Assembly: GCA_041179705.1 (NCBI GenBank)
Contig: JBEGSW010000060.1
Coordinates: 8,990-72,989 of the forward strand
Source of the DNA: Bacillota bacterium
Lineage (GTDB): Bacteria > Bacillota > Bacilli > Paenibacillales > JBEGSW01
Length of the DNA stretch: 64,000 nucleotides
Direction: 5' to 3'
Shown in pieces: positions 8,516 to 61,124 of the stretch. Position 1 is the first letter of the stretch; the number at the start of each line of letters is the position of its first letter. The position numbers and the translations under genes were made by a program. A model generated the notes under the pieces. The model saw only the letters and a program-made list of their open reading frames with translations. It searched no databases and was not told the origin of the DNA.

Positions 8516-8824
8516 ATGAAGACGCGTCGGATTCCTTTGCGGAAATGTGTTGCCTGTCATCAGATGATGGCGAAGAAAGAATTGATTCGCGTTGTACGGT
8601 CGCCTGAGGGTGTTGTGAATCTTGATTTACGAGGCAGAATGGCAGGGCGTGGTGCGTATTTATGTGGATCCCTGAACTGTTTTCAATTAGCAAAAAAGAG
8701 TAAAGCGTTTGATCGCGCGTTAAACGTACCTATAAGCAATGAGATATATGACCAACTACAAGCAGAATTTGTTCGTGTTGAGTCAGAATTTCAAGAACTG
8801 AAGGAGCAAGCGGATGAATCATGA
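8516..8824 (+). CDS. ylxR: YlxR/RnpM family RNA-binding protein (DUF448)
   Basis: 102 aa with IPLRKCVAC motif, in the conserved position after nusA. Confidence 0.85.
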   Translation: MKTRRIPLRKCVACHQMMAKKELIRVVRSPEGVVNLDLRGRMAGRGAYLCGSLNCFQLAKKSKAFDRALNVPISNEIYDQLQAEFVRVESEFQELKEQADES

Positions 8825-25571: not shown

Positions 25572-27995
25572 ATGGAGCTCATGGGGGTGTTCAGTTTGGC
25601 AGCACGACGTAAAAAAAACAACGTAAAATCAACTTTGAAATTTGAAGTTTATGGTATATTAATCATCATTCTTTCTTGGATTAGTTTAGCGGGTCAGGGT
25701 GAATTACCGGGTCTAGGTCCAGTTGGGCGTGCGTTAGGAAATTTATCAACATTATTAACGGGTAAAGTGTATTATATTATGCCTGCAATCGCTATTTATG
25801 TTGCGTTATATATAATGATTAAGCGAACTTGGCCAAATTCATGGTCATTCCGAAAGACAGGTATTTTATTGATTATTCTCGCTTTATTATTACAGTTACA
25901 GATTAATTTAATTGATAAAATTAAAGCGACTGAACCATTTGGTGCAATGGATATCTTGCAACAACCTTTGTCTCATTTTAAGGCATACTTCGCAAATGAG
26001 ATTTCTTCACTTGCCTATAAGAATGGGCTTGGTGGTGGATTATTAGGCGCCGTTTTATATACAATTTCATATGCTTTATTTGATGAGTTGGGTGCGAAGT
26101 TTATCATGATTGGTATGTATGCAATTGGAATAATTTCGATTACAGGTTGGTCCTATGTCGATTTAGCTCGAAAAGCACGCGGTTCTGGTTTAACTGTTTT
26201 CGAATTACTTAAATCGAAATTGGACGGCACTTATCGTCATATTCGTGAATCGCGTGATGAGCGAATTCGTCAAGAAGCATTAAATCAAATGAATGATCAA
26301 ATAAATGAATCAGCGGATGATGACTTCACTCCGGCTCCTAACCGTCCAATGTTTTTTGATTTAAATAATAAGCAATCGTCTGAGACTCCTGTAGATATAG
26401 TAGAGGATTTTCCGAATGTTTCATCTTCGGATGAACCGATTGTTGTGAGGGACTTTTTTGAACAAGTATCCAAAGAAGCAAGTGGTCGTGGAAAGACAAT
26501 TTCGATTACTGAAGAACAGCAAATTGAAGATTTTGAAATAGCATCAGCAGTTCCAACACAACAGAAACCTTATGTTTTACCATCCCTTACATTACTGCAA
26601 TCTCCTAAATCAAAAGGAAGCGCGGCAGGCAGTGATTACATGAATAATGCGCGAAAGCTTGAGACCACACTTGAAAGTTTCGGCGTGAAAGCGAAGGTTG
26701 TTGAGGTTGTTCGGGGTCCTGCAGTTACACGTTACGAAATTCAACCTGATGTTGGTGTTAAGGTTAGTCGCATTGTTTCTCTAACAGATGATATCGCCTT
26801 GGCATTAGCTGCTAAAGATATTCGAATGGAAGCGCCCATTCCTGGAAAAGCTGCTATAGGCATTGAAGTACCGAATACAGAAGTATCTCTAGTGACTTTA
26901 CGAGAAGTTATGGAGACGAGTGCATTCCAAGGTTCCTCTGCGAAACTCAGCGTAGCATTTGGACGAGACATTTCTGGATCACCCATTGTATCTGATTTAG
27001 CCAAAATGCCGCATTTACTTGTAGCCGGAGCAACAGGTTCTGGAAAATCAGTATGTATTAATGGCATCATTACAAGTATTCTATTTAAAGCCAAACCAGA
27101 TGAAGCGAAATTCTTAATGATTGACCCCAAAATGGTTGAATTAAATGTCTACAATGGGATTCCACATTTATTAAGTCCGGTGGTTACTGATCCAAGACGA
27201 GCATCGTTGGCATTAAAAAAAGTGGTTAAAGAAATGGAGAATCGATACGAATTGTTCTCCAAATCTGGGACGCGTAACATTGAAGGCTATAATTCCCATT
27301 TAATCAAGGAAAACCAAAAACCTTTGCCTTTTATCGTAGTTATTGTTGATGAATTGGCAGATTTAATGATGGTAGCTGCTAATGATGTCGAGGATTCCAT
27401 TTGTCGATTGGCTCAAATGGCTCGTGCCGCTGGGATACATTTAATTATTGCAACACAAAGACCATCTGTTGATGTAATTACTGGAGTAATTAAAGCGAAT
27501 ATCCCATCAAGAATTGCTTTTGGTGTTTCTTCACAAGTCGATTCAAGAACGATTCTAGACAGTGCCGGAGCAGAAAAATTACTTGGTCGTGGGGACATGC
27601 TGTTCGTTCCGGTTGGTTCCAACAAACCAACTCGTGTGCAAGGAGCATTCTTGTCAGACCAGGAAGTAGAAGCAGTATGCAATGCTGTTCGTTCCCAAGC
27701 ACAAGCTGAATATCAACCTGAGATGGTCCCTGAATTGGAGCAAGAAGACGAAAATGATGTGGATCCAAATGAGGATGAACTTTTTGATCAGGCTGTTACA
27801 ATCATTTTAGAAGCCAAGCAAGCTTCAGTTTCTTTACTTCAAAGACGGATGCGGATTGGCTATACACGTGCAGCCCGATTGATTGATTATATGGAAGCTA
27901 AAGGTATTATCGGACCATATGAGGGTAGCAAACCAAGAGAAGTATTATATACGCTCGAAGGTTATAGAGGAAGAAATCTAGGTACAAACGAATAA
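25572..27995 (+). CDS. ftsK: DNA translocase FtsK/SpoIIIE
   Basis: N-terminal TM helices, Walker [22 protein letters not shown]-terminal gamma winged helix ([21 protein letters not shown]). Start is uncertain: a TATAAT at 25568-25573 suggests a downstream GTG/TTG (25587/25596) may be used. Confidence 0.93.
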
Positions 27996-46134: not shown

Positions 46135-46167
46135 GACTTTACATATTATAAAGGGTAAGGTGTTTAC

Positions 46168-46710: not shown

Positions 46711-46726
46711 GTAGGTGAAGAATTAT

Positions 46727-47542
46727 ATGAGGACACGATTAATTCAACTATTAATTATATTTATCCCTTCATTTGTCATCGGATTTTGGGAGTATTTTAG
46801 ACATGAATATTTGCTATTTATCCTTACTATGGAACAGGGAAACTGGTTAGCACCAATAATTGTATTGATTGTCACATTAATCTTCGCAACGCCATTATTT
46901 AAGCGATTAGAATACACACAAAAAGAATTAAATGTTGTATCAAAAACGAAAGTTCAATTGGAAGAACGCGAAAAAATAGCCCAAGAATTACATGACGGCA
47001 TCGCACAATCAATTTTTCTTCTTTCTGTGAAATTAGATAAATTAGAACGCGAATTTGGCATAAGTGCTCCTTCTCAAGAACTTCGTAAGACGATTCATCA
47101 AATAAATGACTATGTTAGAGACTCGATCGTTAATTTGAGGGCTCCTATCCAAGAAAATTCCGATCATCTTGAAGATTCGCTTGCGATATTGATAAATAAT
47201 TTCAAAAAAGAAACGGGATTCGAAGTTCAATTTGACTGGAATATATATGAAAAGTGGCTTTCACCTAAAGAACAGTCGGTGGCACTTGCCGTTGTTAGAG
47301 AAGGGTTATTTAACGTAAGGAAACATTCCAATGGTTCAATCGTGACCATACGCACTGCGGGCAACCAAAATCAGTGGTCAATAATTATCGAAGATAATGG
47401 TCTGATTTTTAACACTGACACAAACAGAATTTATGATCAATTCGGAATAAAAATGTTAAGTGAACGATGTGAAGAAGTAAGTTGGAAGATTGAATTAGTT
47501 CATTTACAAGGATGTACAAAGCTCATCGTTTCGAAAGGGTAG
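46727..47542 (+). CDS. Sensor histidine kinase, HisKA_3 (NarL/LiaS-type), minimal two-TM input
   Basis: Two N-terminal TM helices with a ~15 aa loop. H-box AQELHDGIAQSIF, N-box REGLFNVRKHS, IEDNG. ATG 46727 preferred over GTG 46715. Confidence 0.85.
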   Translation: MRTRLIQLLIIFIPSFVIGFWEYFRHEYLLFILTMEQGNWLAPIIVLIVTLIFATPLFKRLEYTQKELNVVSKTKVQLEEREKIAQELHDGIAQSIFLLSVKLDKLEREFGISAPSQELRKTIHQINDYVRDSIVNLRAPIQENSDHLEDSLAILINNFKKETGFEVQFDWNIYEKWLSPKEQSVALAVVREGLFNVRKHSNGSIVTIRTAGNQNQWSIIIEDNGLIFNTDTNRIYDQFGIKMLSERCEEVSWKIELVHLQGCTKLIVSKG

Positions 47543-47546
47543 GTAT

Positions 47547-48194
47547 ATGGACAACTTAAAAGTATTGTTAGTCGACGATCATGCACATGCCAGAGAGGGG
47601 ATGAGAGATATTCTTAACTTACATCCTCTTTTTGATGTTGTTGGTGAAGCTACACATGGCTTGGAAGCAATTGCATTTGTTGAACGATTAATGCCTGATT
47701 TAATCTTAATGGACATTAAAATGAAAGAATTAGATGGGCTTGAAACGACAAAAATAATTAAAGAAAAATATCCTTATATTAAAATTGTAATCGTTACAGT
47801 TTCGGATGATATTTCTCATTTATTTGAGGCGATAAAAAGAGGGGCTCAAGGTTATTTATTAAAAAATCTTCATCCTTCTACATGGATTGAATATCTAGTT
47901 GCCATCGCAAATGACGAAGCGCCGATGTCTAAGGAACTTGCGTTCCAAATCCTTAGTGAATTCAATCAATCAACAACTCAAAATCAGGATTTCACCATAT
48001 TAACGAGTAGAGAGCAAGATATACTCCGATTAGTCGCACAAGGGCTTGCTAACAAACAGATTGCAGAAGCTTTAGTTATTTCTGAACACACCGTTAAAAA
48101 CCATTTAAAAAACATCATGCAAAAACTACATGTTGAAAATCGCGTATTATTGACGAAGTATGCTTTTGAATCTGGTCTTATGAATCCAAATTAG
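47547..48194 (+). CDS. Response regulator, NarL/LuxR family
   Basis: REC domain (LLVDDH...ILMDIKM), C-terminal LuxR HTH LTSREQDILRLVAQGLANKQIAEALVISEHTVKNH. Confidence 0.92.
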   Translation: MDNLKVLLVDDHAHAREGMRDILNLHPLFDVVGEATHGLEAIAFVERLMPDLILMDIKMKELDGLETTKIIKEKYPYIKIVIVTVSDDISHLFEAIKRGAQGYLLKNLHPSTWIEYLVAIANDEAPMSKELAFQILSEFNQSTTQNQDFTILTSREQDILRLVAQGLANKQIAEALVISEHTVKNHLKNIMQKLHVENRVLLTKYAFESGLMNPN

Positions 48195-48214
48195 CCCTTT
48201 TGGGCTTTTTTTGT
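48193..48214 (+). terminator. Rho-independent terminator after the response regulator
   Basis: AGCCC-tttt-GGGCT followed by TTTTTTT. Confidence 0.75.
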
Positions 48215-48254
48215 TTAACTTTTGTTAAATATAAGTAAATATTTATATAAATTA

Positions 48255-48283
48255 TTGATTATATAAGTATATCGTTATATATT
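48255..48283 (+). promoter_or_regulatory. Candidate ars operon promoter, embedded in AT-rich repeats (likely ArsR operator region)
   Basis: TTGATT, 17 nt spacer, TATATT. TATAAGTA occurs twice (direct repeat) in the 48228-48275 region. Confidence 0.45.
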
Positions 48284-48304
48284 TGATTTGAAGGTGGTGA
48301 CAAA

Positions 48305-48622
48305 TTGGATATTAGTATCGAAATTTTATCTGAACGGTTTAAGTTATTAGGCGACAAGACACGATTATCCATATTAGCGTTACTTCGTGAACGAGATATG
48401 TGCGTCTGCGAATTTGTCGAGGTTTTACACTGTTCTCAGCCAGGCGTAAGCCAACATCTAAAAAAACTTAAACAAGCAAATTTAGTAAGAGAATATCGAA
48501 AAGGTCATTGGATTTACTATCAATTAAATAAAGAAGAAATTCCTGAGTTGACTATATACATGGTCGATATTCCGAATCTTAAAAAATACATTGATCAAGA
48601 ACAAGTGGAATGTGAGGCTTAA
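48305..48622 (+). CDS. arsR: ArsR/SmtB family metalloregulator
   Basis: 105 aa. Metal-binding CVCEF motif, wHTH VSQHLKKLKQANLV. TTG start after GAAGGTGGTG. Confidence 0.9.
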   Translation: MDISIEILSERFKLLGDKTRLSILALLRERDMCVCEFVEVLHCSQPGVSQHLKKLKQANLVREYRKGHWIYYQLNKEEIPELTIYMVDIPNLKKYIDQEQVECEA

Positions 48623-48625
48623 TTC

Positions 48626-49936
48626 GTGATGACAAATGATTTTCAAATGATTGCAGCAATTGTAATATTTTTGATAACGTTGACACTTGTAATATGGCAA
48701 CCTAAAGGGCTGAGTATTGGTTGGTCTGCAAGTGCAGGAGCAATATTTGCATACCTATTTCAGGTTGTTGATATACAAGACTTCATAACAGTAACAGATA
48801 TTGTATGGAATGCTACAATCACATTCATTGGGATAATAATCATCTCGTTAATACTAGATGAGATTGGATTCTTTGAATGGTCTGCCTTACATGTTGCACA
48901 TTTTGCTCGAGGCAACGGTAAAAAGATGTTCGTGCTAATTATTTTCCTTGGTGCTGCTGTTTCTGCATTATTTGCAAATGATGGGGCGGCACTAATCATG
49001 ACACCAATTGTTCTCGCGATGGTTCGTTCGCTACGCTTCGATGATCGTATGGTGCTTCCGTTTATTATGGCGTCAGGCTTTATCGCTGATACGACTTCGA
49101 CACCTTTTGTCATAAGTAATTTGGTGAATATTGTGTCTGCCGATTTTTTTGAAATTCGCTTTGCAGAATATGCGCTGCATATGATTGTTCCAACTTTATT
49201 TTCACTCTTTGCCAGTTTAGCTGTCCTTTATTTGTACTTCAGAAAAGATATACCTAGTCACTATCGATCTGAAACACTTAAGAAGCCAATTGAAGCGATT
49301 AAGGATTTCCGTTTATTTAAATTGTCTTGGTTTATTTTGGGAATTCTTCTAACTGCTTACTTCATAAGTGGATATGTAAAAATCCCTGTTTCTGTATTCG
49401 CTGTTTTTGCTTCACTAGTATTCTTGCTTGCCTCAGTCAATAGTAAGGCTGTTCATATTCGAGGAATCCTTAAGCATGCACCATGGTCGGTTGTTGTCTT
49501 TTCAATTGGGATGTACGTTGTTGTGTATGGGTTACAAAATGTCGGTTTAACGACGATTCTAGGTAAATTTCTCCAACTCGTTGCAGATAAAGGATTGTTT
49601 GTTTCTACAATCTCAATGGGATTTATTGCAGCAATATTATCCTCTGTAATGAATAATATGCCTACGGTTATGATTGACGCCTTAGCTATAAAATCGGTCA
49701 CAGCGACTGAAACGGTAGAGAAGGGGCTCATCTATGCAAATGTCATAGGTTCTGATTTAGGCCCCAAAATCACGCCTATCGGTTCATTAGCAACATTATT
49801 ATGGTTACATGTGCTCTCCCAAAAAGGAATACGAATTACGTGGGGGTATTATTTTAAAATTGGGATTTTATTAACAGTTCCTACGTTATTTATCACATTA
49901 ATTGGATTATATGTGTGGCTCTTATTAATTAGTTAA
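48626..49936 (+). CDS. arsB: Arsenical pump membrane protein ArsB
   Basis: 436 aa polytopic; [43 protein letters not shown] as in staphylococcal ArsB. Confidence 0.92.
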
Positions 49937-49966
49937 TCACATTAAATATTAAATTTGGAGGAAATT

Positions 49967-50389
49967 ATGTCTAAACAAACAGTTTATTTCTTATGTACAG
50001 GCAACTCTTGTCGCAGTCAAATTGCTGATGGATTTTTAAAGAAGTATGGTTCTGAGAAATATGAAGTATTAAGTGCAGGTCTTGAAGCACATGGTCTTAA
50101 TCCGCGAGCGATTCAAATAATGAAAGAAGTTGGCATTGATATCACGTCACATACATCAGATGTAATCAATCCTGAAATCTTAAATCGCGCTGATTATGTC
50201 ATAACGCTTTGTGGACACGCGGATGAACATTGTCCAGTAATATTAAATAAGAACGTAATAAAATGGCATTGGGGCTTCGAAGATCCTGCAAAAGCGCAAG
50301 GTACTGAAGAAGAAATCATTGCGAAGTTTAGAGAAGTAAGGGATGCAATTGAAACACGTATAAAGGCATTTATGAAAGATGGTATTTAA
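49967..50389 (+). CDS. arsC: Arsenate reductase, thioredoxin-coupled LMW-PTPase type
   Basis: [18 protein letters not shown] (CX5R P-loop) plus the Cys pair in [13 protein letters not shown] follows GGAGGA. Confidence 0.93.
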
Positions 50390-50405
50390 ACCATCTTTCT
50401 TTTAT
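50377..50405 (+). terminator. Terminator of the ars operon (stop codon in loop)
   Basis: AGATGGT-atttaa-ACCATCT followed by TTCTTTTAT. Confidence 0.6.
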
Positions 50406-50454
50406 GTTATAATATATTCACAAAACTCGTATTTTGTACATAAGTATGAATCAA

Positions 50455-50478
50455 ATAAAAAAGACTCTTTTGAGCCTT
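50455..50478 (-). terminator. Terminator of the minus-strand kinase gene
   Basis: Minus strand reads GGCTC-aaaa-GAGTC (one G-U pair) followed by TTTTTTATTT. Confidence 0.5.
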
Positions 50479-50488
50479 TTCATTCTTG

Positions 50489-51766
50489 CTAATTTGTAGC
50501 TGGTAATTGAATCTTTATATGTGTTCCTTTTCCTTTACTACTTTGGATATTAAGTTTACCGTTCATCTGATCAATTAATTTACGACAAACCATCATTCCT
50601 AATCCTGTTCCTGTCGTTTTTGTTGTGTGATAGGCTTTACCAATATTCGTAAGTTGCTCGTTTGGTATACCAATTCCATTATCGATAACATTAATTTGCA
50701 CATAACCATTAATTTCTTCAGCAGATATTGTGACCTTAGCAGATTCTATATTTGAGCAAGCTTCAATCGCATTTTTTACGATATTCATTAAGATTTGATC
50801 TAATTTCTCTTTATATCCCCAAATATATAATTCCGTATTTTCATCATTTTTATTCTCTAGTGAGATATTGTTAAATAGTGAATAGCTGCTAACAATTGTA
50901 CAAATTCTTCTAATAGTATCATTTACATTAATCTTACCTAGAACATCTTGATTTGGTTTCGAATAGGATAAGTAATCCTTGATAATATATTCTGCTCTCT
51001 CCAACTCTGAATTACATAAATCGATGTAACTTTTAATCTTTTCACTTGGTAGTCGATTGTGGCCTTGTTGAATTAATTGTGTGAAACCTTTTACGACAGT
51101 GATCGGATTCCTAATTTCGTGGGCAATGGATGCAGCAATTTGACTGATTTGTTTAAGCTTTTCAGATTCCAGGACATCTTTTTCGATTTCTAATCTTCTG
51201 CCCTTCTCTTTGATTAAATATAATATTCCGATAAATAGTAACAACTCAACAAATGGATAAACGATTAAATTGAACAAAGTTCCAGTTTTAATAATGTCGT
51301 AAGCAAATGCTAACAATGCAGCATAACGAATTAAAATTAAGATAAGAAATAATTTAATACCCTCAGAAATTTCAATTTTCCGTGAAACGAATACACGCTG
51401 CTTCATTACAAGTATGCTATACATTGCAACTGCTTGTATCAGAAAAACGGTTAAATCAGTTAGATTATGCCCGCCACCAAGGATGACGTGAAGGCCCCAA
51501 ATAAATAAAAAGAATAACAAGCCCATGTGTGGGGAAAAAAAGATCATGATTAGTACAATTGGAAGCATGCGAAAATCATTCATAAATCCCGCATTTAAAT
51601 AATGGGAATGAATCACATTTAGGCAAGTAATGATTGGCACAGAAACAATGACTAACATTTTCTTACGCAAAGACTCAACAACAGAACTTTTCATATTTAT
51701 AATAAAAATAAATGGTAGCAGGATGAACATTATCTGCATAATTAAAATATTAAAAAGTTCAAACAA
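50489..51766 (-). CDS. Sporulation-type sensor histidine kinase with 6-TM N-terminal domain (KinB-like)
   Basis: ~6 TM helices, then H-box SIAHEIRNPITVVKGF (KinA-E style) and HATPase_c (NAIEA...DNGIGI...GTGLGM). TTG at 51766 follows GGAGGA; the ORF-track TTG at 51781 lies inside the RBS. Confidence 0.85.
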   Translation of the reverse strand: MFELFNILIMQIMFILLPFIFIINMKSSVVESLRKKMLVIVSVPIITCLNVIHSHYLNAGFMNDFRMLPIVLIMIFFSPHMGLLFFLFIWGLHVILGGGHNLTDLTVFLIQAVAMYSILVMKQRVFVSRKIEISEGIKLFLILILIRYAALLAFAYDIIKTGTLFNLIVYPFVELLLFIGILYLIKEKGRRLEIEKDVLESEKLKQISQIAASIAHEIRNPITVVKGFTQLIQQGHNRLPSEKIKSYIDLCNSELERAEYIIKDYLSYSKPNQDVLGKINVNDTIRRICTIVSSYSLFNNISLENKNDENTELYIWGYKEKLDQILMNIVKNAIEACSNIESAKVTISAEEINGYVQINVIDNGIGIPNEQLTNIGKAYHTTKTTGTGLGMMVCRKLIDQMNGKLNIQSSKGKGTHIKIQLPATN

Positions 51767-51918
51767 TGTTTTTTCCTCCAATTATCAATGTTAGGTTAAA
51801 CATAACAATAGTTACTTTAACATCTTAATTTATGAATAACAAACATTAATTTCCTTTTTTATAAAATTATTTATTATTCCGTAAACATTTAACTATAAAT
51901 TGAATTAGGAGGAAAAAT

Positions 51919-52989
51919 ATGAATGTCACAAAGCAACATGATCGACACTTGTTAGATCAGAAAATACCAAATATGCCCTGGTATATTGAGAAATTTATTA
52001 ATTACAAATTACCTGATTTATCACCCTCTTCCCTGCTCGAATATATTCGCGATTATGAAATGTTTCTGAATTGGTTGATTGCTGAAGGAATTGCAAATAG
52101 TTCATCGATAAAAGAGATACCATTATCAATATTAGAAGGTTTACATATGGATTCTATTGATGCTTATCGGTCTTTTTTAGCTACAAAGAAAATCGGCACG
52201 AATGGTAAAGTAACACAATCCAGGAAACTTTCATCTCTCCGCTCATTGTTCCATTATTTGAGTCAAATTGCTGAGGATGAACAGTTTTACCCACTCCTTA
52301 AACGAAATGTGATGGCTAAAGTATCGATTAAACGAACAAACAAACCGAAAGATACTGCCGCTAAACTTGAAGGGAAATTACTTCAGGAACACGAAATTTC
52401 TGAATTCATTGCATTTATCAAGAATGAGTATCCGATCGCACTTAGCAAAAACAAGCAAGCACTTTATGCTTATGAAAAGAATTATATACGTGATATTTGT
52501 ATCATCACGCTTATTTTGAACTCAGGTTTACGCGTCTCTGAAGTGGTAAATCTTAACGTTGACGATATAGATTTAAAGAAAAAGTTAGCCTACGCCTACC
52601 GCAAAGGGAAGAATGACGATACATTCAAAACTCCTGTGTATTTTCGACAAGATGCAATTGATGCGCTTGTACAATACATGGAGATTAGAGAACTAAGATA
52701 CAATGCGAATAAACGTGAAAAAGCACTATTCCTCGCCGTCGCGAATGGGAAGACAGAAGGCTCGCGATTGACCAAACGTGCAATTCAAGAGTTAGTAATC
52801 AAATACGCGAAGCGGTTTGGCAAACCCTATTTAACCGTTCATAAACTTCGACATTCGTTCGCAACAGATTACTACCTTAGAAATGACATTTATAAGACGC
52901 AAGAACAACTTGGACATGCCTCACCGGAAACAACACAAATCTATGCCCACTTAACAGATAAGACGATGTCTGAAGCCATTGATAAATAA
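51919..52989 (+). CDS. xerS: Tyrosine recombinase, XerS-like
   Basis: 356 aa. N-terminal MPWYIEKFINYKL..SPSSLLEYIRDYEMFLNWL..GIAN...IPLSILEGL, RNVMAKVS, GLRVSEVVNL, HKLRHSFAT, LGHASPETTQIYAH (catalytic Tyr). Pattern and length match streptococcal/lactococcal XerS as I recall it. Confidence 0.7.
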   Translation: MNVTKQHDRHLLDQKIPNMPWYIEKFINYKLPDLSPSSLLEYIRDYEMFLNWLIAEGIANSSSIKEIPLSILEGLHMDSIDAYRSFLATKKIGTNGKVTQSRKLSSLRSLFHYLSQIAEDEQFYPLLKRNVMAKVSIKRTNKPKDTAAKLEGKLLQEHEISEFIAFIKNEYPIALSKNKQALYAYEKNYIRDICIITLILNSGLRVSEVVNLNVDDIDLKKKLAYAYRKGKNDDTFKTPVYFRQDAIDALVQYMEIRELRYNANKREKALFLAVANGKTEGSRLTKRAIQELVIKYAKRFGKPYLTVHKLRHSFATDYYLRNDIYKTQEQLGHASPETTQIYAHLTDKTMSEAIDK

Positions 52990-53027
52990 AAAAAAGTTAC
53001 CGTCCCTTTTGGATGGTAACTTTTTTT
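52988..53027. terminator. Bidirectional terminator between xerS-like and the acidic-protein gene
   Basis: AAAAAAAA-GTTACCGTCC-ctttt-GGATGGTAAC-TTTTTTT. Confidence 0.85.
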
Positions 53028-53029
53028 AT

Positions 53030-54376
53030 TTAGGCTTCTTTATTCTCGTTTAATATTCGAATTGCCTCATTGAATTCATGAATGGCATCTTCTAATGCAT
53101 AGATTGTGTTTTGTAGTTGATCGCTATCCCAAGGATTTATCCGTAACTCGCGTTTGTACTCATTCAGTTGTTTGCGCATTGTATCGATATCCATTTGAAT
53201 CGTACTAATTAACGTTCTAAAGGTTACTGGTGGTTTTATTCTTGTTGGTTCAGTTACAGCTTTAACTTCATCTAGAATCGATTTTAAAGGCGCTGTATCC
53301 ATGTTGGGTGGATTTGTACCAATAATGTCTGTAAGTAGAGATTTAGCAGGTTCCGTTGGTGAGATTGGCAACGGTTCAGAATCGCTCGCCTGATCCGTTG
53401 ATAAATAATCAAATGGTCGTTTAGATTTATTTTTCATTACATTTGATAATGTTTCTTCATCCAATTCATTTACCCAATCTGGTAAATCTTCGAGCGGGGC
53501 CGTCTCGTAAAACACTTCAATTTCACGTTTAGGTTTCACATATTCGACTTCTTCTTTTTCGTCTTCAGTCATAGCAAGTGAATCCGTAGACAAATCGATT
53601 TCAACTACGTTATCCTCTACTTCTGTTTTTTCAGCGGTATTTTGTAGAGCCATATTAAACTTTTTGGTGTCAATGACGAGTGTTGCTGTTTGCATATCTT
53701 CATCGTCGTTGTCAATTGCTAAGTTAATTTGTTCGATATCAGTAACAACCGGTACTCTTTTTGTACTATGTGGTTGTTTGGTCTTTTCGTTATCAACTGA
53801 GATATCAATTCCGTCTAATTCTAGCTCGAGATTGCCTTCACTTTCAGCGGAATCAAATTTTATTTCATTTTCCTGAGTAGAATTCGGTTTCGTATTTTGC
53901 TTAGAAATCATATCTTTCATCCAATTATAGGATTCTTCTAAATGCTGAATCTTTTCTGGATCAACGACTTTAGAAGCCATCTTTGTTGGGTGAATGGAGA
54001 ATCGATTAGCAATAGTGTCATCCACAATCAAATCGGGATCACCTTGACTCTCAAGCTCAAGCTCTATTTCTGGGTCAACAGTTAAATCAATTTCTTTAGT
54101 TGGCTCAACTTTTTCTTCCGAAACTTGCTCACCATTCTTGCGAATGTATAGGCCACCTGAACAACTCTCAGTGAAATAAAAGACGAGCATTTCATTATAA
54201 TCAATTAGTTTAACTGCAGCATCAAAACTAGGGTTTAAATCATATTCATCAATTAACTTGTTAATTTCGGCGTCTCTACCTTGCACATAAAACTGTTGAC
54301 GAATAACTTTTCCTGCTAATTTATAATCACAGTTACGAAGTGTTGTCTTTAATTTAAGTTTCTCAAAAAAATTCAT
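53030..54376 (-). CDS. Hypothetical, highly acidic protein (448 aa), no family recognised
   Basis: ATG 54376 follows GGGGGA. Ordered-looking N-terminus (~90 aa) and C-terminal helical region (~70 aa) flank a D/E-rich low-complexity middle (EIELELESQGDPDLIVDD, NLELELDGIDISVDNE, DNDDEDMQ, TEDEKEEVEY). Confidence 0.7.
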   Translation of the reverse strand: MNFFEKLKLKTTLRNCDYKLAGKVIRQQFYVQGRDAEINKLIDEYDLNPSFDAAVKLIDYNEMLVFYFTESCSGGLYIRKNGEQVSEEKVEPTKEIDLTVDPEIELELESQGDPDLIVDDTIANRFSIHPTKMASKVVDPEKIQHLEESYNWMKDMISKQNTKPNSTQENEIKFDSAESEGNLELELDGIDISVDNEKTKQPHSTKRVPVVTDIEQINLAIDNDDEDMQTATLVIDTKKFNMALQNTAEKTEVEDNVVEIDLSTDSLAMTEDEKEEVEYVKPKREIEVFYETAPLEDLPDWVNELDEETLSNVMKNKSKRPFDYLSTDQASDSEPLPISPTEPAKSLLTDIIGTNPPNMDTAPLKSILDEVKAVTEPTRIKPPVTFRTLISTIQMDIDTMRKQLNEYKRELRINPWDSDQLQNTIYALEDAIHEFNEAIRILNENKEA

Positions 54377-54426
54377 TACGTTATCCCCCAAATTAATCGC
54401 GAGTGTTCAGCGAATGTTGTCGAAAT

Positions 54427-54696
54427 TTATTCTTTAATTACTGTCTTTTTCGCGGTTTCGACAAGCATGTCGAATAATTCATCTGTATCTTCTAGAACCT
54501 CTTCAAGTTCTAAAATGTTCTCCTCGGTGCCGGATTCTTCAAGAAATAGTAAACTATAACCCCAATCTTTTCCGTTCAATTTCTGCAAGTGAATTTCATA
54601 GGGTTGATCATGATTTTCATAACGAAATGAAACTTTTCCAACAAACCCATCTTCCTTTGAAAACGTCATTTCCGCATTTAAAATTTCAACATTCAT
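54427..54696 (-). CDS. Hypothetical small acidic protein (89 aa)
   Basis: ATG 54696 follows AAAGGAG. MNVEILNAEMTFSKEDGFVGKVSF...EENILELEEVLEDTDELFDMLVE. Own promoter upstream, 50 nt from the next gene. Confidence 0.65.
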   Translation of the reverse strand: MNVEILNAEMTFSKEDGFVGKVSFRYENHDQPYEIHLQKLNGKDWGYSLLFLEESGTEENILELEEVLEDTDELFDMLVETAKKTVIKE

Positions 54697-54729
54697 GATG
54701 ATATCTCCTTTATAATTCTGCATTTATTA

Positions 54730-54758
54730 ATTATATCTTTAATACATTTAACTGCCAA
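54730..54758 (-). promoter_or_regulatory. Sigma-A promoter for the two acidic-protein genes
   Basis: Minus strand reads TTGGCA, 17 nt spacer, TATAAT. Confidence 0.6.
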
Positions 54759-54769
54759 TGAAATATACA

Positions 54770-54803
54770 CAAAAAAACCATCAATATTCATTGATGGTTT
54801 TTA
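54770..54803. terminator. Terminator after ABC-F (ykpA-like), symmetric with A/T runs on both sides
   Basis: AACCATCAAT-attc-ATTGATGGTT perfect 10-bp stem flanked by A7 and T3-5. Confidence 0.85.
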
Positions 54804-54812
54804 ATAAATTGT

Positions 54813-56426
54813 TTAATTATATGCTTTACTTCTAAATTTTTTGCACTCATCACTTTCTAAGTATTCGTCGAAAGTTGTCATTTTATCCATAATCCCATTC
54901 GGAGCAATTTCGATAATTCGATTTGCAATCGTCTGTACAAACTGATGGTCATGAGATGTAAACAATATTGTACCGTCGAACTGGATTAACCCATTATTCA
55001 AGGCAGTGATAGATTCTAAGTCCAAATGGTTCGTAGGCTCATCTAGAATAAGAACATTTGGCGATTGAAGCATCATTTTGGCAAGCATACAACGTACGCG
55101 CTCTCCACCTGAAAGAACATTCACTTTTTTCAAAGCTTCTTCACCGGAGAACAACATACGGCCCAAGAATCCGCGGATAAATGATTCATCTTGGTCTTTG
55201 GAATACTGTCTTAACCAATCAATGATGTTGATATCATCCTGGAAGTATGGTGTGTTATCTTTCGGGAAGTAGGCAACAGTTGTTGTTACACCCCAGTTAT
55301 ACGTACCTTCTTGTGGTTCAATTGTACCGGAAATAATTTCGTAGAGCGCTGTTCGCGCTGCACCATTAGGTCCGACAAATGCAACTTTATCGCCTTTATG
55401 AATTGTTAAATTAAGTTTATCCAACACAACTGTGTCTTCAATTTTATGCGTTAAATTCTCAACGGAAACTAATTGCTTCCCTGCTTCACGCTCAGATTTA
55501 AAGTTAATGAACGGGTATTTACGGTTAGACGGTCGAATGTCTTCCAACGTTAACTTCTCCAAGGATTTTTTACGAGAAGTAGCCTGTTTCGATTTCGAAG
55601 CATTTGCACTGAATCGACGAATAAATTCTTCTAATTCTTTACGCTTATCTTCGATACGTTTATTCGATTCACGTTGCAATTGTAAGGCTAACTGGCTGGA
55701 CTCATACCAGAAATCATAGTTACCCACATACATTTGAATTTTCCCGAAATCAATATCGGCAATATGTGTACAAACTTGGTTCAAGAAGTGACGGTCATGA
55801 GATACAACAATAACAGTACCTTCATACTTTGCCAAAAACTGCTCTAACCAATTGATGGATTCTAAGTCCAAATGGTTGGTAGGCTCATCGAGTAGTAAGT
55901 TCTGAGGATTACCAAATAAAGCTTGTGCCAATAATACACGTACTTTATCGTTTCCAGTTAATTCTTTCATTTGCATATCATGAAGATCGCGCGTTATCCC
56001 TAAACCAATTAGGAGTTCAGCTGCTTCTGGTTCAGCATCCCAACCATTTAATTCTGCAAATTCACCCTCTAATTCAGCAGCACGCATACCATCTTCATCT
56101 GAGAAATCTGATTTTGCATAGATTGCATCTTTCTCTTTCATAATGTTATATAACTTGGAATGCCCCATGATGACTGTTTCAAGAACTGGGAATTCATCAT
56201 ATTCATAATGGTTCTGCTTTAATACTGCAAAACGCTCACCTGGTGTAATGTGTACATGACCTTTGTTTGGCTCAATTTCTCCTGACAAAATCTTTAAGAA
56301 CGTTGATTTACCTGCACCATTGGCACCAATCAAACCATAGCAATTCCCAGGTGTAAACTTAATGTTTACTTCTTCGAAAAGTGCTCTACTTCCATAGCGT
56401 AAGGATATATTCTCAGTACTAATCAT
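54813..56426 (-). CDS. ykpA: ABC-F family translation-associated ATPase, YbiT/YkpA subfamily
   Basis: 537 aa, two ABC domains, no TMD. GNCYGLIGANGAGKSTFLKILSGEIEP...VIVVSHDRHFLN...YVGNYDFWYESSQLAL closely follows the B. subtilis YkpA / E. coli YbiT pattern. Confidence 0.88.
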   Translation of the reverse strand: MISTENISLRYGSRALFEEVNIKFTPGNCYGLIGANGAGKSTFLKILSGEIEPNKGHVHITPGERFAVLKQNHYEYDEFPVLETVIMGHSKLYNIMKEKDAIYAKSDFSDEDGMRAAELEGEFAELNGWDAEPEAAELLIGLGITRDLHDMQMKELTGNDKVRVLLAQALFGNPQNLLLDEPTNHLDLESINWLEQFLAKYEGTVIVVSHDRHFLNQVCTHIADIDFGKIQMYVGNYDFWYESSQLALQLQRESNKRIEDKRKELEEFIRRFSANASKSKQATSRKKSLEKLTLEDIRPSNRKYPFINFKSEREAGKQLVSVENLTHKIEDTVVLDKLNLTIHKGDKVAFVGPNGAARTALYEIISGTIEPQEGTYNWGVTTTVAYFPKDNTPYFQDDINIIDWLRQYSKDQDESFIRGFLGRMLFSGEEALKKVNVLSGGERVRCMLAKMMLQSPNVLILDEPTNHLDLESITALNNGLIQFDGTILFTSHDHQFVQTIANRIIEIAPNGIMDKMTTFDEYLESDECKKFRSKAYN

Positions 56427-56484
56427 TCTTTCATCTACCGCCTCTACCTATATTTACATGCATAATACGTTAATCGATTTCTCT

Positions 56485-57855
56485 CTAATTGTCCATTTCA
56501 GTCCAAAATTGAACGAGTGTGTTTACACCACACTCCCAATTTACTAAATGAAAATGTTCATCAGGTGCGTGCATATTTTCGCCAGGCATTCCAAAATCCA
56601 TCATGACAACGGGAACATTAAATTGTTCAACGAATGTTTGAACAATCGGAATCGAACCACCACTTCTAGTAAACACAGGTTTTTTCCCGAATCCAATCTC
56701 ATATGCTTTAGCAGCTTTTTGAATATACGGATGATCTGGAGATACGACAAAAGGTTTACCGCCAAGTAATTTCCTTACTTCAACACGAACACCAGTCGTA
56801 TTCAACTTATTGATATGTTTATTAATCAGGTTAAGTATATGTTCGGGATCTTGTTCATCTACCAATCGACAAGAAATTTTAGCAATGGCATGGTTCGGAA
56901 CAATGGATTTTATGTTTTCCCCAAAGTATCCACCTGCAAATCCATTGATTTCTATAGTTGGTCTTGCAGTAGTTTGTTCATAAAAGTTGTATCCTCGCTC
57001 CCCATACAACACATCTACTTGAAGCGTCTTGGCTACATCATTTGGATCAGGACTCAATTTAGCATTGTTCTCTCTAATTGCTTCTGACATCTCATGAACG
57101 CCTTCATAGAAACCTTCGATCGCAATATGTCCATCTTCGTCGTGGAATGAAGCAATAATGTGACTTAACACATGTAAGGGATTAGCAACGCCGCCGCCAA
57201 ACATCCCCGAGTGAAGATCACTTTTGGCACCATGTACTTCAATTTCTAGGCATGCTAGACCACGAAGGCCTACACAGATTGATGGTTGATCAAAATCATG
57301 TATTGGACCATCTGATATAACCATTAAATCGGCTTTTAATTGCTCATGATGGGTAGATAAGAATTCAGGTAAGTGTACGCTGGAAATTTCCTCTTCCCCT
57401 TCGATGCAGAACTTTACATTGATTGGTAATTTCCCATGAGTCCTAAGATAAGCTTCAACGGTCTTGATATGAATATAAACTTGGGCTTTATCATCGGTAG
57501 CACCGCGAGCGTAAATCTTATTGTCTCTAATTTCGGGTTCAAACGGTGGTGTCGTCCAAAGTTCGAACGGTTCTGCGGGTTGAACGTCATAATGCCCATA
57601 TATAATCGCAGTTGGCTTTCCTTCTGCATGAAGCCAATCGCCATAGACAACAGGATGTCCACCAGTCTCCATTACTTCGACATGTTCAAGTCCTGCCTCA
57701 ATCATACGATTGGCTAACCAAGAAGCCGCTTGACGCATGTCATCGTTATGATGAATTTGGGAACTTACGCTAGGAATTCGCAAGTAATCGAATAATTCGG
57801 CAATCATACGGTCTTTGTGTTCTGCTAAATAGGCAATTACCTGGTTCGTAGACAT
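56485..57855 (-). CDS. M20 family dipeptidase
   Basis: 456 aa, YGHYDVQP, ARGATDDKAQV, dimerisation insert, C-terminal PDEHFH. Confidence 0.88.
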   Translation of the reverse strand: MSTNQVIAYLAEHKDRMIAELFDYLRIPSVSSQIHHNDDMRQAASWLANRMIEAGLEHVEVMETGGHPVVYGDWLHAEGKPTAIIYGHYDVQPAEPFELWTTPPFEPEIRDNKIYARGATDDKAQVYIHIKTVEAYLRTHGKLPINVKFCIEGEEEISSVHLPEFLSTHHEQLKADLMVISDGPIHDFDQPSICVGLRGLACLEIEVHGAKSDLHSGMFGGGVANPLHVLSHIIASFHDEDGHIAIEGFYEGVHEMSEAIRENNAKLSPDPNDVAKTLQVDVLYGERGYNFYEQTTARPTIEINGFAGGYFGENIKSIVPNHAIAKISCRLVDEQDPEHILNLINKHINKLNTTGVRVEVRKLLGGKPFVVSPDHPYIQKAAKAYEIGFGKKPVFTRSGGSIPIVQTFVEQFNVPVVMMDFGMPGENMHAPDEHFHLVNWECGVNTLVQFWTEMDN

Positions 57856-57870
57856 GCATTCCCTCCAAAA

Positions 57871-59445
57871 TTATCTTAGATAATGATTATTTGAATCTTG
57901 TTGTGACCATTCTTCTACATTCCATACGCGACTAACCCAACCCTCATAGAAGTCTGGTTCGTGACAAACGATAATGACCGTTCCCTTATAGGCTTGAAGA
58001 GCACGCTGAAGCTCTGCTTTTGCTACTACATCCAAGTGGTTCGTCGGCTCATCCATGAGTAACCAATTGGATTCTCGCATCATTAATTTACAAAGTCGAA
58101 CTTTTGCTTGTTCACCACCACTTAATTTGTTAAGTGGACGTGTAATATGCTCGTTCTTAAGACCACAACGTGCAAGTGCAGCGCGAACTTCGTGCTGATT
58201 CATACTTGAGAATTCGTTCCAAACATCATCAATCGGCGTTAAATTTCCGGATTTTACTTCTTGTTCGAAGTATCCCGGTGTTAAGAAGTCACCACGTTCT
58301 ACTTTTCCTTCATACGGGCTGATTTTCCCTAACAATGTCTTTAATAATGTCGATTTCCCTACACCATTACATCCGGTAATTGCAATTTTTTCACCACGTT
58401 CAACCGTTACAGCCATTTGTGGCAATGGTAATGGTTCATTGTATCCAATACGCAAGTCTTTCGCTTCAACTACATAGCGGCTACTTGCTCTTGTCTCTTT
58501 GAACTCAAATGTCGGTTTAACATTCTCTTCTGGGCGATCAATACGTTCAATCCGATTGAGTTGTTTTTCACGGCTTTTTGCTCGACCAGATGTCGAATAA
58601 CGAGCTTTATTTCGTTGAATAAAGTCTTCTTGTTTTTTTATAAATTCTTGTTGCTTCTCGTATGCATCAATATGCTGATTTTTATTCATTTCAGACATTT
58701 CAAGGAACTTTTCATAGTTCGCCGTATAACGTGTAACTTTACTAAATTCCAAGTGATAGATAATTGTTACAACATCATTCATAAATTCCGTGTCATGTGA
58801 AATTAAAATGAAAGCATATGGATAATCCTGTAAATATTTCTTCAGCCATTCAATATGTTCAACGTCTAAGTAGTTTGTCGGCTCATCTAATAACAAAACT
58901 GTCGGGCGTTCAAGTAACAACTTAGCAAGTAAAACCTTTGTACGCTGTCCACCACTCAATGCAGTGACATCTCGATCTAGTCCAATTACTCCAAGACCTA
59001 AACCATTTGCAGTCTCTTCTACCTTTACATCAATCATATAGAAACCACTATCTTCAAGTCGGCCTTGAATCTCACCCATTTCTTCTAATAGTGCTTCAAG
59101 TTCTTCCGGATTTGCATCACCCATTAATTCATAAATCTGTGTTAAACGCTTTTCTTGTTCAAAGAGAGGTAAAAACGCTGTCTTTAATACATCACGGATT
59201 GTTAATCCTGGTTGTAACACAGTGTGTTGATCTAAATAGCCGTATTGTACGCGAGGTGTCCATTCAATCTTACCTTCATCTTTCAAGATGCTACCCGTTA
59301 TTAAGTTCATCATTGTAGATTTGCCAGCTCCATTAGCACCAACGATGCCAACGTGCTCCCCAGCTAACAAACGGAAAGAAACATCTTTAAAAAGGACGCG
59401 GCCGCCATAACTATGACTCAATCCTTCGACCGTTAATAAACTCAT
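57871..59445 (-). CDS. ABC-F family ATPase, YfmM-like (housekeeping type)
   Basis: 524 aa, two ABC domains (GIVGANGAGKST; ITGCNGVGKSTL) with a short inter-domain linker and no TMD. Confidence 0.85.
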   Translation of the reverse strand: MSLLTVEGLSHSYGGRVLFKDVSFRLLAGEHVGIVGANGAGKSTMMNLITGSILKDEGKIEWTPRVQYGYLDQHTVLQPGLTIRDVLKTAFLPLFEQEKRLTQIYELMGDANPEELEALLEEMGEIQGRLEDSGFYMIDVKVEETANGLGLGVIGLDRDVTALSGGQRTKVLLAKLLLERPTVLLLDEPTNYLDVEHIEWLKKYLQDYPYAFILISHDTEFMNDVVTIIYHLEFSKVTRYTANYEKFLEMSEMNKNQHIDAYEKQQEFIKKQEDFIQRNKARYSTSGRAKSREKQLNRIERIDRPEENVKPTFEFKETRASSRYVVEAKDLRIGYNEPLPLPQMAVTVERGEKIAITGCNGVGKSTLLKTLLGKISPYEGKVERGDFLTPGYFEQEVKSGNLTPIDDVWNEFSSMNQHEVRAALARCGLKNEHITRPLNKLSGGEQAKVRLCKLMMRESNWLLMDEPTNHLDVVAKAELQRALQAYKGTVIIVCHEPDFYEGWVSRVWNVEEWSQQDSNNHYLR

Positions 59446-59545
59446 TTCTATATATCTCCTATCATTTCATGATTGTCTTTAAACCTTGAATATTATAGCA
59501 TAGATTGCATAGAAAATTGTAGTTCGTTTAAGGAGGAGATTGAGG

Positions 59546-59839
59546 ATGGGTGTTCGTTTTAACCGTGAATATGAAGACATTCTTAAAGATTTTACGGAGG
59601 CGTTAGCTTCGATTGAGGATAGCGCAGCATTTGTTGAAATGGAAGTATCTGAATGGAAGCAATTAAAGCCCACAATACGCAAAGAAATTGCGCAGACGAT
59701 TGCGGACGATTTGTTCTTTGCATTAGGTGAAGACGCGATTATAGATTTTGGCCAAACGAAAGCAGTCTATGATCCGACTTCTCATGAAATTGCGCTAATT
59801 AAAGCCAAAGGTGAGAAAATTACAATTAAATTGATTTAA
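59546..59839 (+). CDS. Hypothetical protein (97 aa)
   Basis: ATG 8 nt after AAGGAGGA; MGVRFNREYEDILKDFTEALASIEDSAAF.... Followed by a strong hairpin. No family recognised. Confidence 0.6.
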   Translation: MGVRFNREYEDILKDFTEALASIEDSAAFVEMEVSEWKQLKPTIRKEIAQTIADDLFFALGEDAIIDFGQTKAVYDPTSHEIALIKAKGEKITIKLI

Positions 59840-59844
59840 TAAAT

Positions 59845-59887
59845 AAAGGATTCTCTTCTGGTTGAGATAACCAAGAAAGAATCCTTT
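59845..59887. terminator. Bidirectional terminator (97-aa ORF / YciI-like gene)
   Basis: AAAGGATTCTCTTCTGGTT-gagat-AACCAAGAAAGAATCCTTT long imperfect stem. Confidence 0.75.
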
Positions 59888-59890
59888 CGT

Positions 59891-60157
59891 TTATTTACAT
59901 TCAGTTGCTGCCCATTCACGAATTAAATAATGTCGTGCATCATGGATGATAAATGGATCCTGTTTTACTAGTTCTTCTACTTCTTCGTACGTCTCGCCAT
60001 AATAAATAACCATTCCACCCCAGCCATCAACAAAGCGACCGTAGCTATATAATTTACCTTGATTGGCAAGTTCTTCTAAGTAGGCCAAATGTTCTGCGCG
60101 GTATTTCACACTTAATTCTTCACTTTTCATTTCAAGAAATACGACATAATGTTTCAT
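59891..60157 (-). CDS. YciI-like family protein
   Basis: 88 aa, MKHYVVFLEM...HLAYLEELANQGKLYSYGRF...DPFI pattern typical of YciI. Confidence 0.75.
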   Translation of the reverse strand: MKHYVVFLEMKSEELSVKYRAEHLAYLEELANQGKLYSYGRFVDGWGGMVIYYGETYEEVEELVKQDPFIIHDARHYLIREWAATECK

Positions 60158-60177
60158 TAATCATTTCCCAACTTTCA

Positions 60178-60792
60178 TTATAATTTAGTTATGACTTGTT
60201 TAAGTTGAATAAAATATTCATCGGATTGCGGTGTGAAATCATCTTTCATTGCCTGGAACATTACTTCATCGTAGTGTTCGGTTTCTACATTCCATTGTAA
60301 GCCAGTTACCGGAATCGAAGAAACTGATCCGTCCATTAAATCAAAAAACGCCTGCACGGGAACTTGGAAAATACCTGTAACTTCTTCTTTTTGTAAACTG
60401 TATTCATGAAGCTCTTGTTGTTCATGAAGTATGAATAAATGACACACTTCTTTATCTTTCCAGTGCGGTTCAATATGTTGTTGTTTGACCGTCCCACAAC
60501 TAACAAGCGATTCGAAAGGGACAATTAAACCAAGTTCTTCTTCAATCTCTCTGACACCATCTGCAACAGTTTCCCCTGCCATCAAGTGACCTGCACTTGA
60601 CTTATCCAATTTATTGGGAAAAGCTTCTTTATTCGGGTGTCTTCGTTGTACAAGCCAATATTTTTCACCATTTACGATACGATAAATCCAACATTGAAAG
60701 GTATGGTGCCATAAACCCAACGTATGCGTATCTAAACGAGAGGCTGTACCAATCGAATTAAATTCATCATCAAATACATCAAAATACTCCAT
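60178..60792 (-). CDS. NUDIX hydrolase
   Basis: Nudix box GHLMAGETVADGVREIEEELGL (GX5EX7REUXEEXGU). 204 aa. RBS GGAGGT. Confidence 0.88.
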   Translation of the reverse strand: MEYFDVFDDEFNSIGTASRLDTHTLGLWHHTFQCWIYRIVNGEKYWLVQRRHPNKEAFPNKLDKSSAGHLMAGETVADGVREIEEELGLIVPFESLVSCGTVKQQHIEPHWKDKEVCHLFILHEQQELHEYSLQKEEVTGIFQVPVQAFFDLMDGSVSSIPVTGLQWNVETEHYDEVMFQAMKDDFTPQSDEYFIQLKQVITKL

Positions 60793-60914
60793 TTTCGTTT
60801 ACCTCCAAGTTCGTTAACACTTATTTTAACGCGTGATCAACGCTTTGTCATTTGATAATCGATATGAAATTAGTTACCATAGTATGTATCGAATCTATAA
60901 ATGAGGTGTAAATA

Positions 60915-61124
60915 TTGGGTTTAGTTGATATTACAGAAGTATCACGAGCATTCTTTATTACTACTGCTCTATTTATTGTTATGACGTTATCATTTTTGAG
61001 TCTTGCTTTTGTTACACTTGTTAATAACAAGAAAAAGAATGCGCTTGTATACTTCGTATTAGGCATAAGTGCAGCAATTACTTACGGAATTCTCGTCCTA
61101 ACTTGGTTGCAAGATACGATGTAA
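60915..61124 (+). CDS. Small membrane protein (69 aa, two predicted TM helices)
   Basis: TTG start after GAGGTG; AFFITTALFIVMTLSFLSLAFVTLV and ALVYFVLGISAAITYGILVLTWL. Terminator follows. Confidence 0.55.
   Translation: MGLVDITEVSRAFFITTALFIVMTLSFLSLAFVTLVNNKKKNALVYFVLGISAAITYGILVLTWLQDTM

Follow-up and report, generated by a model that had tools for sequence, protein, structure and literature searches.

Where on this chromosome do the two replichores meet, and which recombinase could resolve chromosome dimers there? The question is raised by a stretch of 64 kb from contig JBEGSW010000060.1 of a Bacillota bacterium (the whole of which is called the window below), in which the coding strand switches at about 50.4 kb. 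The original prediction held that the replichores meet at ~49.7-52 kb and that a dimer-resolution site lies there, and it leaned on both the switch itself and copies of the octamer GAGAAGGG that converge on it. Our analysis retains the first part of this argument and not the second: the switch of coding strand and skew, a xerS gene at 51919-52989 and a candidate site upstream of it speak for the proposal, while the octamers do not. The earlier conclusion of a replichore junction at ~50-52 kb with a dimer-resolution function is thus supported. The flagged locus is very probably a replication terminus region, and the host is a low-GC relative of Paenibacillaceae.

The analysis of open reading frames (ORFs), counted as gene-like when they had at least 100 aa, revealed such frames on the + strand only between 67 and 50389 and mostly on the - strand past 50489. 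At least 45 + genes stand in an unbroken row before the switch according to the ORF list and gene calls, and the gene calls on identical metagenome contigs match the strand pattern of the window, so the orientation described in the original prediction (+ up to 50389, mostly - after 50489) is borne out. The switch itself falls at 50.39-50.49 kb, where the co-oriented gene arms converge. The left arm (1-50389, +) has unbroken + genes and positive skew: the value of GC skew for 1-50440 is +0.141 and that for 50441-61000 is -0.098, and cumulative G-C reaches its maximum at 50382 on a plateau from 50273 to 50698. Two 60-nt base counts given earlier in favor of a skew change proved exact (G16/C8 at 1-60; G9/C16 at 57001-57060). 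The convergence point, 50374-50481, holds the strand switch, the cumulative G-C peak and two terminators located by a terminator scan, that of arsC at 50374-50399 (+) and that of a kinase gene at 50481-50458 (-). Extension of the right arm on a further contig (L085) added at least nine genes on the window's - strand beyond its right end; in total 19 of the 22 genes of the right arm are on the - strand over ~22 kb, including 9 kb past the window. The skew of the extension has the same sign as that of the window's right arm, and the changed sign persists for more than 20 kb. Since both the - orientation and the sign of the skew continue beyond the end of the window, the switch is sustained and is not a small island.

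The decisive feature of the locus had not been identified in the original prediction. It is the gene xerS (51919-52989, +), which encodes a 356-aa single tyrosine recombinase. The protein passes the NCBIfam XerS equivalog NF003462 with 374.2 bits (cut-off 267), residues 4-356 lying on positions 2-355 of the 360 of the model. The scores of the XerC and XerD models are far under their cut-offs; Pfam Phage_integrase also matches the protein. Alignment with solved Xer structures, namely XerA (4a8e, 5hxy), XerH and XerD, places GLRVSE, RKGK, HKLRHSF, LGHAS and QIYAH on their catalytic motifs and shows the catalytic R-K-H-R-H/W-Y set to be complete. Judged by sequence, the product is a single-subunit Xer-family tyrosine recombinase of the XerS type. 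The gene is located ~1.5 kb to the right of the switch and is transcribed away from the switch point, which makes it head-on to replication.

Relatives of the gene were collected as 77 genome loci (L001-L077) and 18 metagenome loci. An identical protein belongs to a metagenome-assembled genome labelled 'Bacillota bacterium', and more than 100 proteins of Paenibacillus and Cohnella, mostly named XerS by NCBI, share 70-79% identity with the XerS of the window. The nearest relative is encoded by a short Logan contig (L078; XerS 89% identical), and a metagenome search for closer ones returned only matches of 72-82% identity, none nearer than L078. A genome scan found xerS once per genome. In the three large assemblies with a readable position (L002, L015 and L072, the last being the complete genome CP166298.1) it lies at 47-51% of record length. 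In 70 of 70 full-length relatives xerS is a lone head-on gene, and its orientation in the window is the same. No synteny between the neighbours of xerS in the window and Paenibacillus was found. One of the relatives, L005 (DATJKM010000195.1), is labelled 'Candidatus Udaeobacter sp.' (Verrucomicrobiota) and carries a typical Paenibacillus xerS, with 77% identity and a perfect family dif-like site; this contig is probably a binning contaminant.

Sequence comparison upstream of xerS identified, in ~28 of the genome loci, a conserved 28-mer beginning 74-79 bp upstream of the start codon of xerS. Its consensus is AGTTTACATAA-TTATTA-TTATGTTCATT, and it is conserved across genomes of 43-63% GC. The layout is 11-6-11, with inner CATAA/TTATG repeats 6 bp apart, as in classical dif. 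Of its two arms, one has exactly the sequence of the XerD/RipX arm of B. subtilis dif, TTATGTAAAC (the complete B. subtilis dif being ACTTCCTAGAATATATATTATGTAAACT; PMC3025954 supplement), and the other is unlike the XerC arm of Firmicutes. In 15 of the 77 relatives, two or three strong dif-like sites are present within 21 kb of xerS (e.g. L001, L003, L040, L042, L070, L072 and L074). In two loci, L026 (sites at 8811 and 9925) and L035 (7068 and 9925), a pair of sites brackets a gene for a SleB-like cell-wall hydrolase, and the cassette of L035 also encloses a TetR regulator and an esterase. Such site-flanked cassettes may be Xer-exploiting elements or products of programmed rearrangement.

A matrix was built from 28-30 of the xerS-adjacent sites of the relatives, and the whole 64 kb was scanned with it on both strands. 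The best match in the window was 51795-51822, a dif-like 28-mer (GTTAAACATAA CAATAG TTACTTTAACA) located 97 bp upstream of the xerS ATG, which scored 15.8 bits, or 18.7 bits with a sequence-weighted matrix. The chance of such a score anywhere in the window is ~2% (5/300; 7/400), and in the 137-bp intergenic region alone, which has 18% GC, it is ~2e-4 (1/5000). Scans with dif, difSL and the family matrix found no other dif-like sequence anywhere in the window. The 28-mer is a plausible, if degenerate, candidate for the XerS target; that exactly these bases are the target we consider to have slightly less than an even chance.

Several observations weigh against this assignment, or against reading the junction from the position of xerS. 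The candidate reaches 16-19 bits, where the sites of the relatives reach 32-48 bits. It has 9 mismatches in 28 to the family consensus, which by mismatch count is no better than random. The homologous sequence in L078 has 23 of the 28 bases in common with it and reads CACAA in place of CATAA; its score is between about -1 and -2 bits. The candidate also overlaps the likely promoter or leader of the first gene of the right arm, a sensor histidine kinase gene (HisKA + HATPase_c by NCBIfam/Pfam; 50489-51781, -) whose start is called on identical contigs at the equivalent of 51694 or 51766, and this overlap could be the reason for its conservation. As to the skew, in this window it is inseparable from coding-strand bias: at third codon positions the three + genes of the right arm, the only head-on genes compared, are as positive as the + genes of the left arm. 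Finally, the xerS-linked site of the relatives is not at a skew switch within 10 kb (0/70). Measured on the xerS strand, GC skew stays negative through the 10 kb to either side in all 70 full-length relatives; the switch is usually more than 10 kb from xerS, and L006 alone switches in range, ~5 kb upstream. The linked site of these relatives is therefore internal to one replichore, and it always lies on the side of xerS that faces the terminus. Since it is away from the skew switch, and GAGAAGGG does not flip there (see below), xerS and its site mark the terminus region and need not mark the exact junction. In the window the skew switch is only 1.4 kb from the candidate. Distances from dif to the skew switch of up to ~1.4% of genome length have been published (PMC3025954), and the distance from xerS to the switch in the relatives is compatible with them.

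Searches with other models gave no competing site. The scan for B. subtilis dif and difSL that had been suggested earlier found nothing in the window, the best matches having 9-10 mismatches. The 28-bp Firmicutes dif had no match at three or fewer mismatches, and the best one, with nine at 46136, was at background level. E. coli dif and a generic XerD arm gave background-level matches only in the window. The best window match to streptococcal difSL had 10 mismatches in 31 and was located away from xerS. No window match at three or fewer mismatches was obtained with a consensus for the Ter sites of B. subtilis RTP. Two further sequences were considered and rejected. The first is an imperfect palindrome, TTATGT ... 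ACATAA, between the two terminators at the exact switch point (50402-50443; its inner 11-6-11 repeat at 50415-50442 reads TATTCACAAAA / TTTTGTACATA). As a dif it is without the CATAA/TTATG core, it matches neither dif nor Ter, and it folds no better than shuffled sequence (z = -0.6). The second is another match to the family matrix, at 51857-51890 (8.4 and 11.6 bits), which resembles difSL piecewise (ATTATTCCGTAAA, ACTATAA); its spacing is unlike that of difSL and differs by 2 nt in L078. The conserved (C/T)ATAAAAT within it is more simply explained as the -10 box of xerS.

Overall, we consider it likely that the window contains the terminus of a Paenibacillaceae relative, with dimer resolution by XerS at the candidate dif-like site. 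XerS would bind a dif-like site upstream of its own gene, for which 51795-51822 is the best candidate. In a chromosome dimer the two copies of the site would be joined at the septum by the FtsK/SpoIIIE-family DNA translocase encoded at 25572-27995 (+; NCBIfam FtsK, E = 1e-149), and strand exchange by XerS would then return the dimer to monomers, a route demonstrated by experiment for XerS/difSL of Lactococcus and Streptococcus. That work on dimer resolution in Streptococcus and Lactococcus is reportedly due to Le Bourgeois in 2007 and Nolivos in 2010. The last 98 aa of the translocase align with the FtsK gamma domains 2j5o, 2ve8 and 2j5p (E ~3e-13) and correspond to a C-terminal winged-helix; the protein is presumed to be the partner that activates Xer recombination.

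It could also be that the terminus is real and xerS with its site is not the dimer-resolution system. On this explanation, which we judge unlikely, xerC/xerD and a canonical dif would be present elsewhere in the chromosome and XerS would have some other task, such as integrating or excising dif-flanked cassettes of an IMEX-like kind close to the terminus. Such an accessory role for XerS is kept open by the location of the relatives' site inside one replichore, the nearest 10 kb being free of a skew switch in all 70 loci. The 15 relatives with two or three dif-like sites in 21 kb, where pairs bracket small cassettes (L026, L035), point in the same direction, as does the similarity of the relatives' sites to ordinary XerCD dif with an XerD-type arm. 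Moreover, Kono et al. describe a Lactobacillus genome with xerC, xerD and xerS together (PMC3025954). On the other side, the spacing between site and xerS is fixed (~-75 bp) over species of 43-63% GC, which favors a functional module; apart from the candidate, no dif-like sequence turned up in the 64 kb that surround the switch; and xerS is highly conserved and was found once per genome.

The converging octamers, which carried much of the original prediction, offer a different location for dif. If GAGAAGGG did guide SpoIIIE/FtsK in this bacterium, its convergence would mark dif at 49.7-51.2 kb, a proposal that we regard as improbable. Its count was given correctly: GAGAAGGG occurs exactly three times in the 64 kb on both strands, at 47298-47305 (+) in a HisKA_3 kinase gene (46715-47542, +), at 49718-49725 (+) in arsB (48626-49936, +) and at 51201-51208 (-) in the sense strand of the histidine kinase gene 50489-51781. 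The identity of GAGAAGGG with the SpoIIIE recognition sequence (SRS) of B. subtilis is likewise confirmed (PMC3384302). All three copies are oriented with the replichores, the motif is 54:10 leading to lagging in the relatives, and the FtsK of the window carries a gamma domain, the recognition-helix region of which may resemble that of B. subtilis SpoIIIE. Dinucleotide shuffles contained 0.87 copies on average and 5 of 100 of them reached three, so that the count by itself is barely unusual, and three copies are too few for statistics.

To control for composition, all 56 octamers of composition G5A3 were pooled and counted in the window and in 1.5 Mb of the relatives. The leading:lagging ratio of these octamers was 35:5 in the window and 2866:623 (82% leading) in the relatives, where GAGAAGGG, with 84% leading, ranked 27th of the 56. 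Its bias is thus not in excess of that of composition-matched octamers. No guide motif common to Firmicutes has been found, and the FtsK of L. lactis uses GAAGAAG (PMC3384302); in the window this word is 30:5, a bias like that of other purine-rich words, and the E. coli FtsK motif GGGNAGGG is absent. The octamers were also expected to flip at the dimer-resolution site. In the relatives GAGAAGGG follows the replication strand and favors one and the same strand to the left (6:35) and to the right (4:19) of the xerS-linked site. The window's own copy at 51201, which lies left of the candidate, is directed away from that candidate. The interval of 49.7-51.2 kb on which the copies converge was without a dif-like sequence under any model tried. 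An unbiased search for k-mers of the relatives that converge on the site was also made and rejected, the top ones reflecting homologous genes common to the loci and no polar motifs.

Purine- and G-rich words all 'converge' at a strand switch in this genome, and three of three replichore-oriented copies of GAGAAGGG are therefore the expected outcome. Gene orientation and GC skew already contain whatever the octamer could tell; its three copies are a side effect of leading-strand coding sequence that is rich in purines and in G. Since the FtsK of the window has a gamma domain, some guide motif for it probably exists, and nothing here points to GAGAAGGG. A caution follows for similar loci: purine-rich octamers that 'converge' where the coding strand switches have to be compared with composition-matched controls before they can count as evidence of a guide motif.

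The genes of the two arms are as follows. The left arm includes polC, infB, pnp, ftsK/spoIIIE, recA, rny, miaB, a ymcA-like gene, a two-component pair and arsRBC (ORF list); NCBIfam identified polC, IF-2, PNPase, RecA, RNase Y, MiaB, ArsR, ArsB and ArsC. The portion from polC to miaB is a conserved core string of Bacilli, after which come the two-component pair, of NarL type, and then arsR-arsB-arsC. In B. subtilis the string from polC to miaB runs toward the terminus, a further point in favor of a terminus here. The left arm closes with a complete arsR-arsB-arsC arsenic-resistance operon (48305-50389), its last transcription unit, whose end coincides exactly with the switch. On the right arm, a 453-aa acidic protein is encoded at 53030-54391 (-), convergent with xerS, and a 98-aa protein adjoins it at 54427-54723 (-). 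Neither has a Pfam or NCBIfam match; in a tblastn search against 96 xerS loci the 453-aa protein matched L078 alone and the 98-aa protein matched none. Two ABC-F family ATPases follow at 54813-56426 (-) and 57871-59445 (-), with an M20 peptidase between them. Homologues of the second, 57-58% identical, are located ~8 kb upstream of xerS in L053, L067 and L076. Genes of a housekeeping kind (ABC-F, peptidase, transporters, POR) extend along the - arm over more than 20 kb. In the entire window, no Rfam family attained its gathering score.

The last explanation, that the switch is merely local (an inversion or an inserted island) and the recombinase a mobile-element integrase, could appeal to a right arm visible for only ~22 kb, to a skew that cannot be separated from gene orientation and to the lineage-specific neighbours of xerS (the ars operon, orphan kinases and proteins without a known family), and it is nonetheless highly improbable: the flanks of xerS are without phage or transposon genes, in Paenibacillaceae xerS forms a conserved, single-copy family and is mid-record in large assemblies, its product passes the XerS equivalog and not integrase models, and the housekeeping-type genes of the - arm continue for more than 20 kb.

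We compared the arrangement of the window with known systems. The defining layout of XerS/difSL is a xerS gene next to its site at the terminus, and difSL is 31 bp long, with arms TTTCCGAAAA and TTTTCTTGAAA around an 11-bp centre (PMC5357621). The window resembles it in three respects: the 356-aa single recombinase passes the XerS equivalog, its gene is located at the replichore junction and has a candidate site upstream of it, and a gene for a gamma-domain translocase of the FtsK family is close by. It differs in that the host is a Paenibacillaceae-like member of Bacillales and not of Streptococcaceae, and in that difSL is lacking from the window, the family site having CATAA/TTATG repeats 6 bp apart. 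With the B. subtilis XerCD (CodV/RipX) dif, the site of the relatives shares the 11-6-11 layout, the XerD/RipX arm and the location in the terminus region. The other arm of the relatives' site is different, however, the candidate of the window has at least 9 mismatches to B. subtilis dif, and, unlike XerCD dif, the relatives' site is physically linked to a XerS-type gene. We know of no XerCD system in which the site is physically linked to a recombinase gene in this way. XerH/difH of Helicobacter and Campylobacter is similar in having a single recombinase whose gene adjoins the site near the terminus (PMC5357621), and XerH is a detectable structural relative of the XerS of the window (5jjv, E = 6e-11), although it is distant in sequence and belongs to another phylum with another site. 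As regards SRS and the FtsK-orienting polar sequences (KOPS), the window contains the exact B. subtilis SRS with all copies on the leading strand, but GAGAAGGG has no excess skew here and does not flip at the xerS-linked site of the relatives. In terms of sequence, the system appears to be XerS-type and to be neither XerCD/dif nor difSL.

A more general proposal can be put forward only tentatively, and we hold it to be less likely than not. The XerS of the Paenibacillaceae type may be a single recombinase that acts on a classical 28-bp dif, with a 6-bp spacer and an XerD-type arm, and so be intermediate between XerCD/dif and XerS/difSL. Its sites may also be used by small dif-flanked cassettes near the terminus, as in the 15 of 77 relatives described above, and the window would come from a reduced, low-GC member of the family with a diverged site.

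As a terminus the locus is ordinary; what is mildly novel is an XerS outside Streptococcaceae linked to a classical-looking dif. The analysis places the terminus on a contig of a metagenome-assembled genome and names the likely dimer-resolution gene, which is useful for orienting the assembly and for annotation. In the literature that we searched, XerS is a peculiarity of Streptococcaceae tied to the 31-bp difSL, and more than 100 Paenibacillus and Cohnella genomes share a protein of the XerS model (70-79% identity) linked to a classical-looking dif. If XerS does act on this dif-like site, the family would show a one-recombinase system arising on an ancestral dif, and it would provide a second tractable model for FtsK-controlled resolution by a single recombinase.

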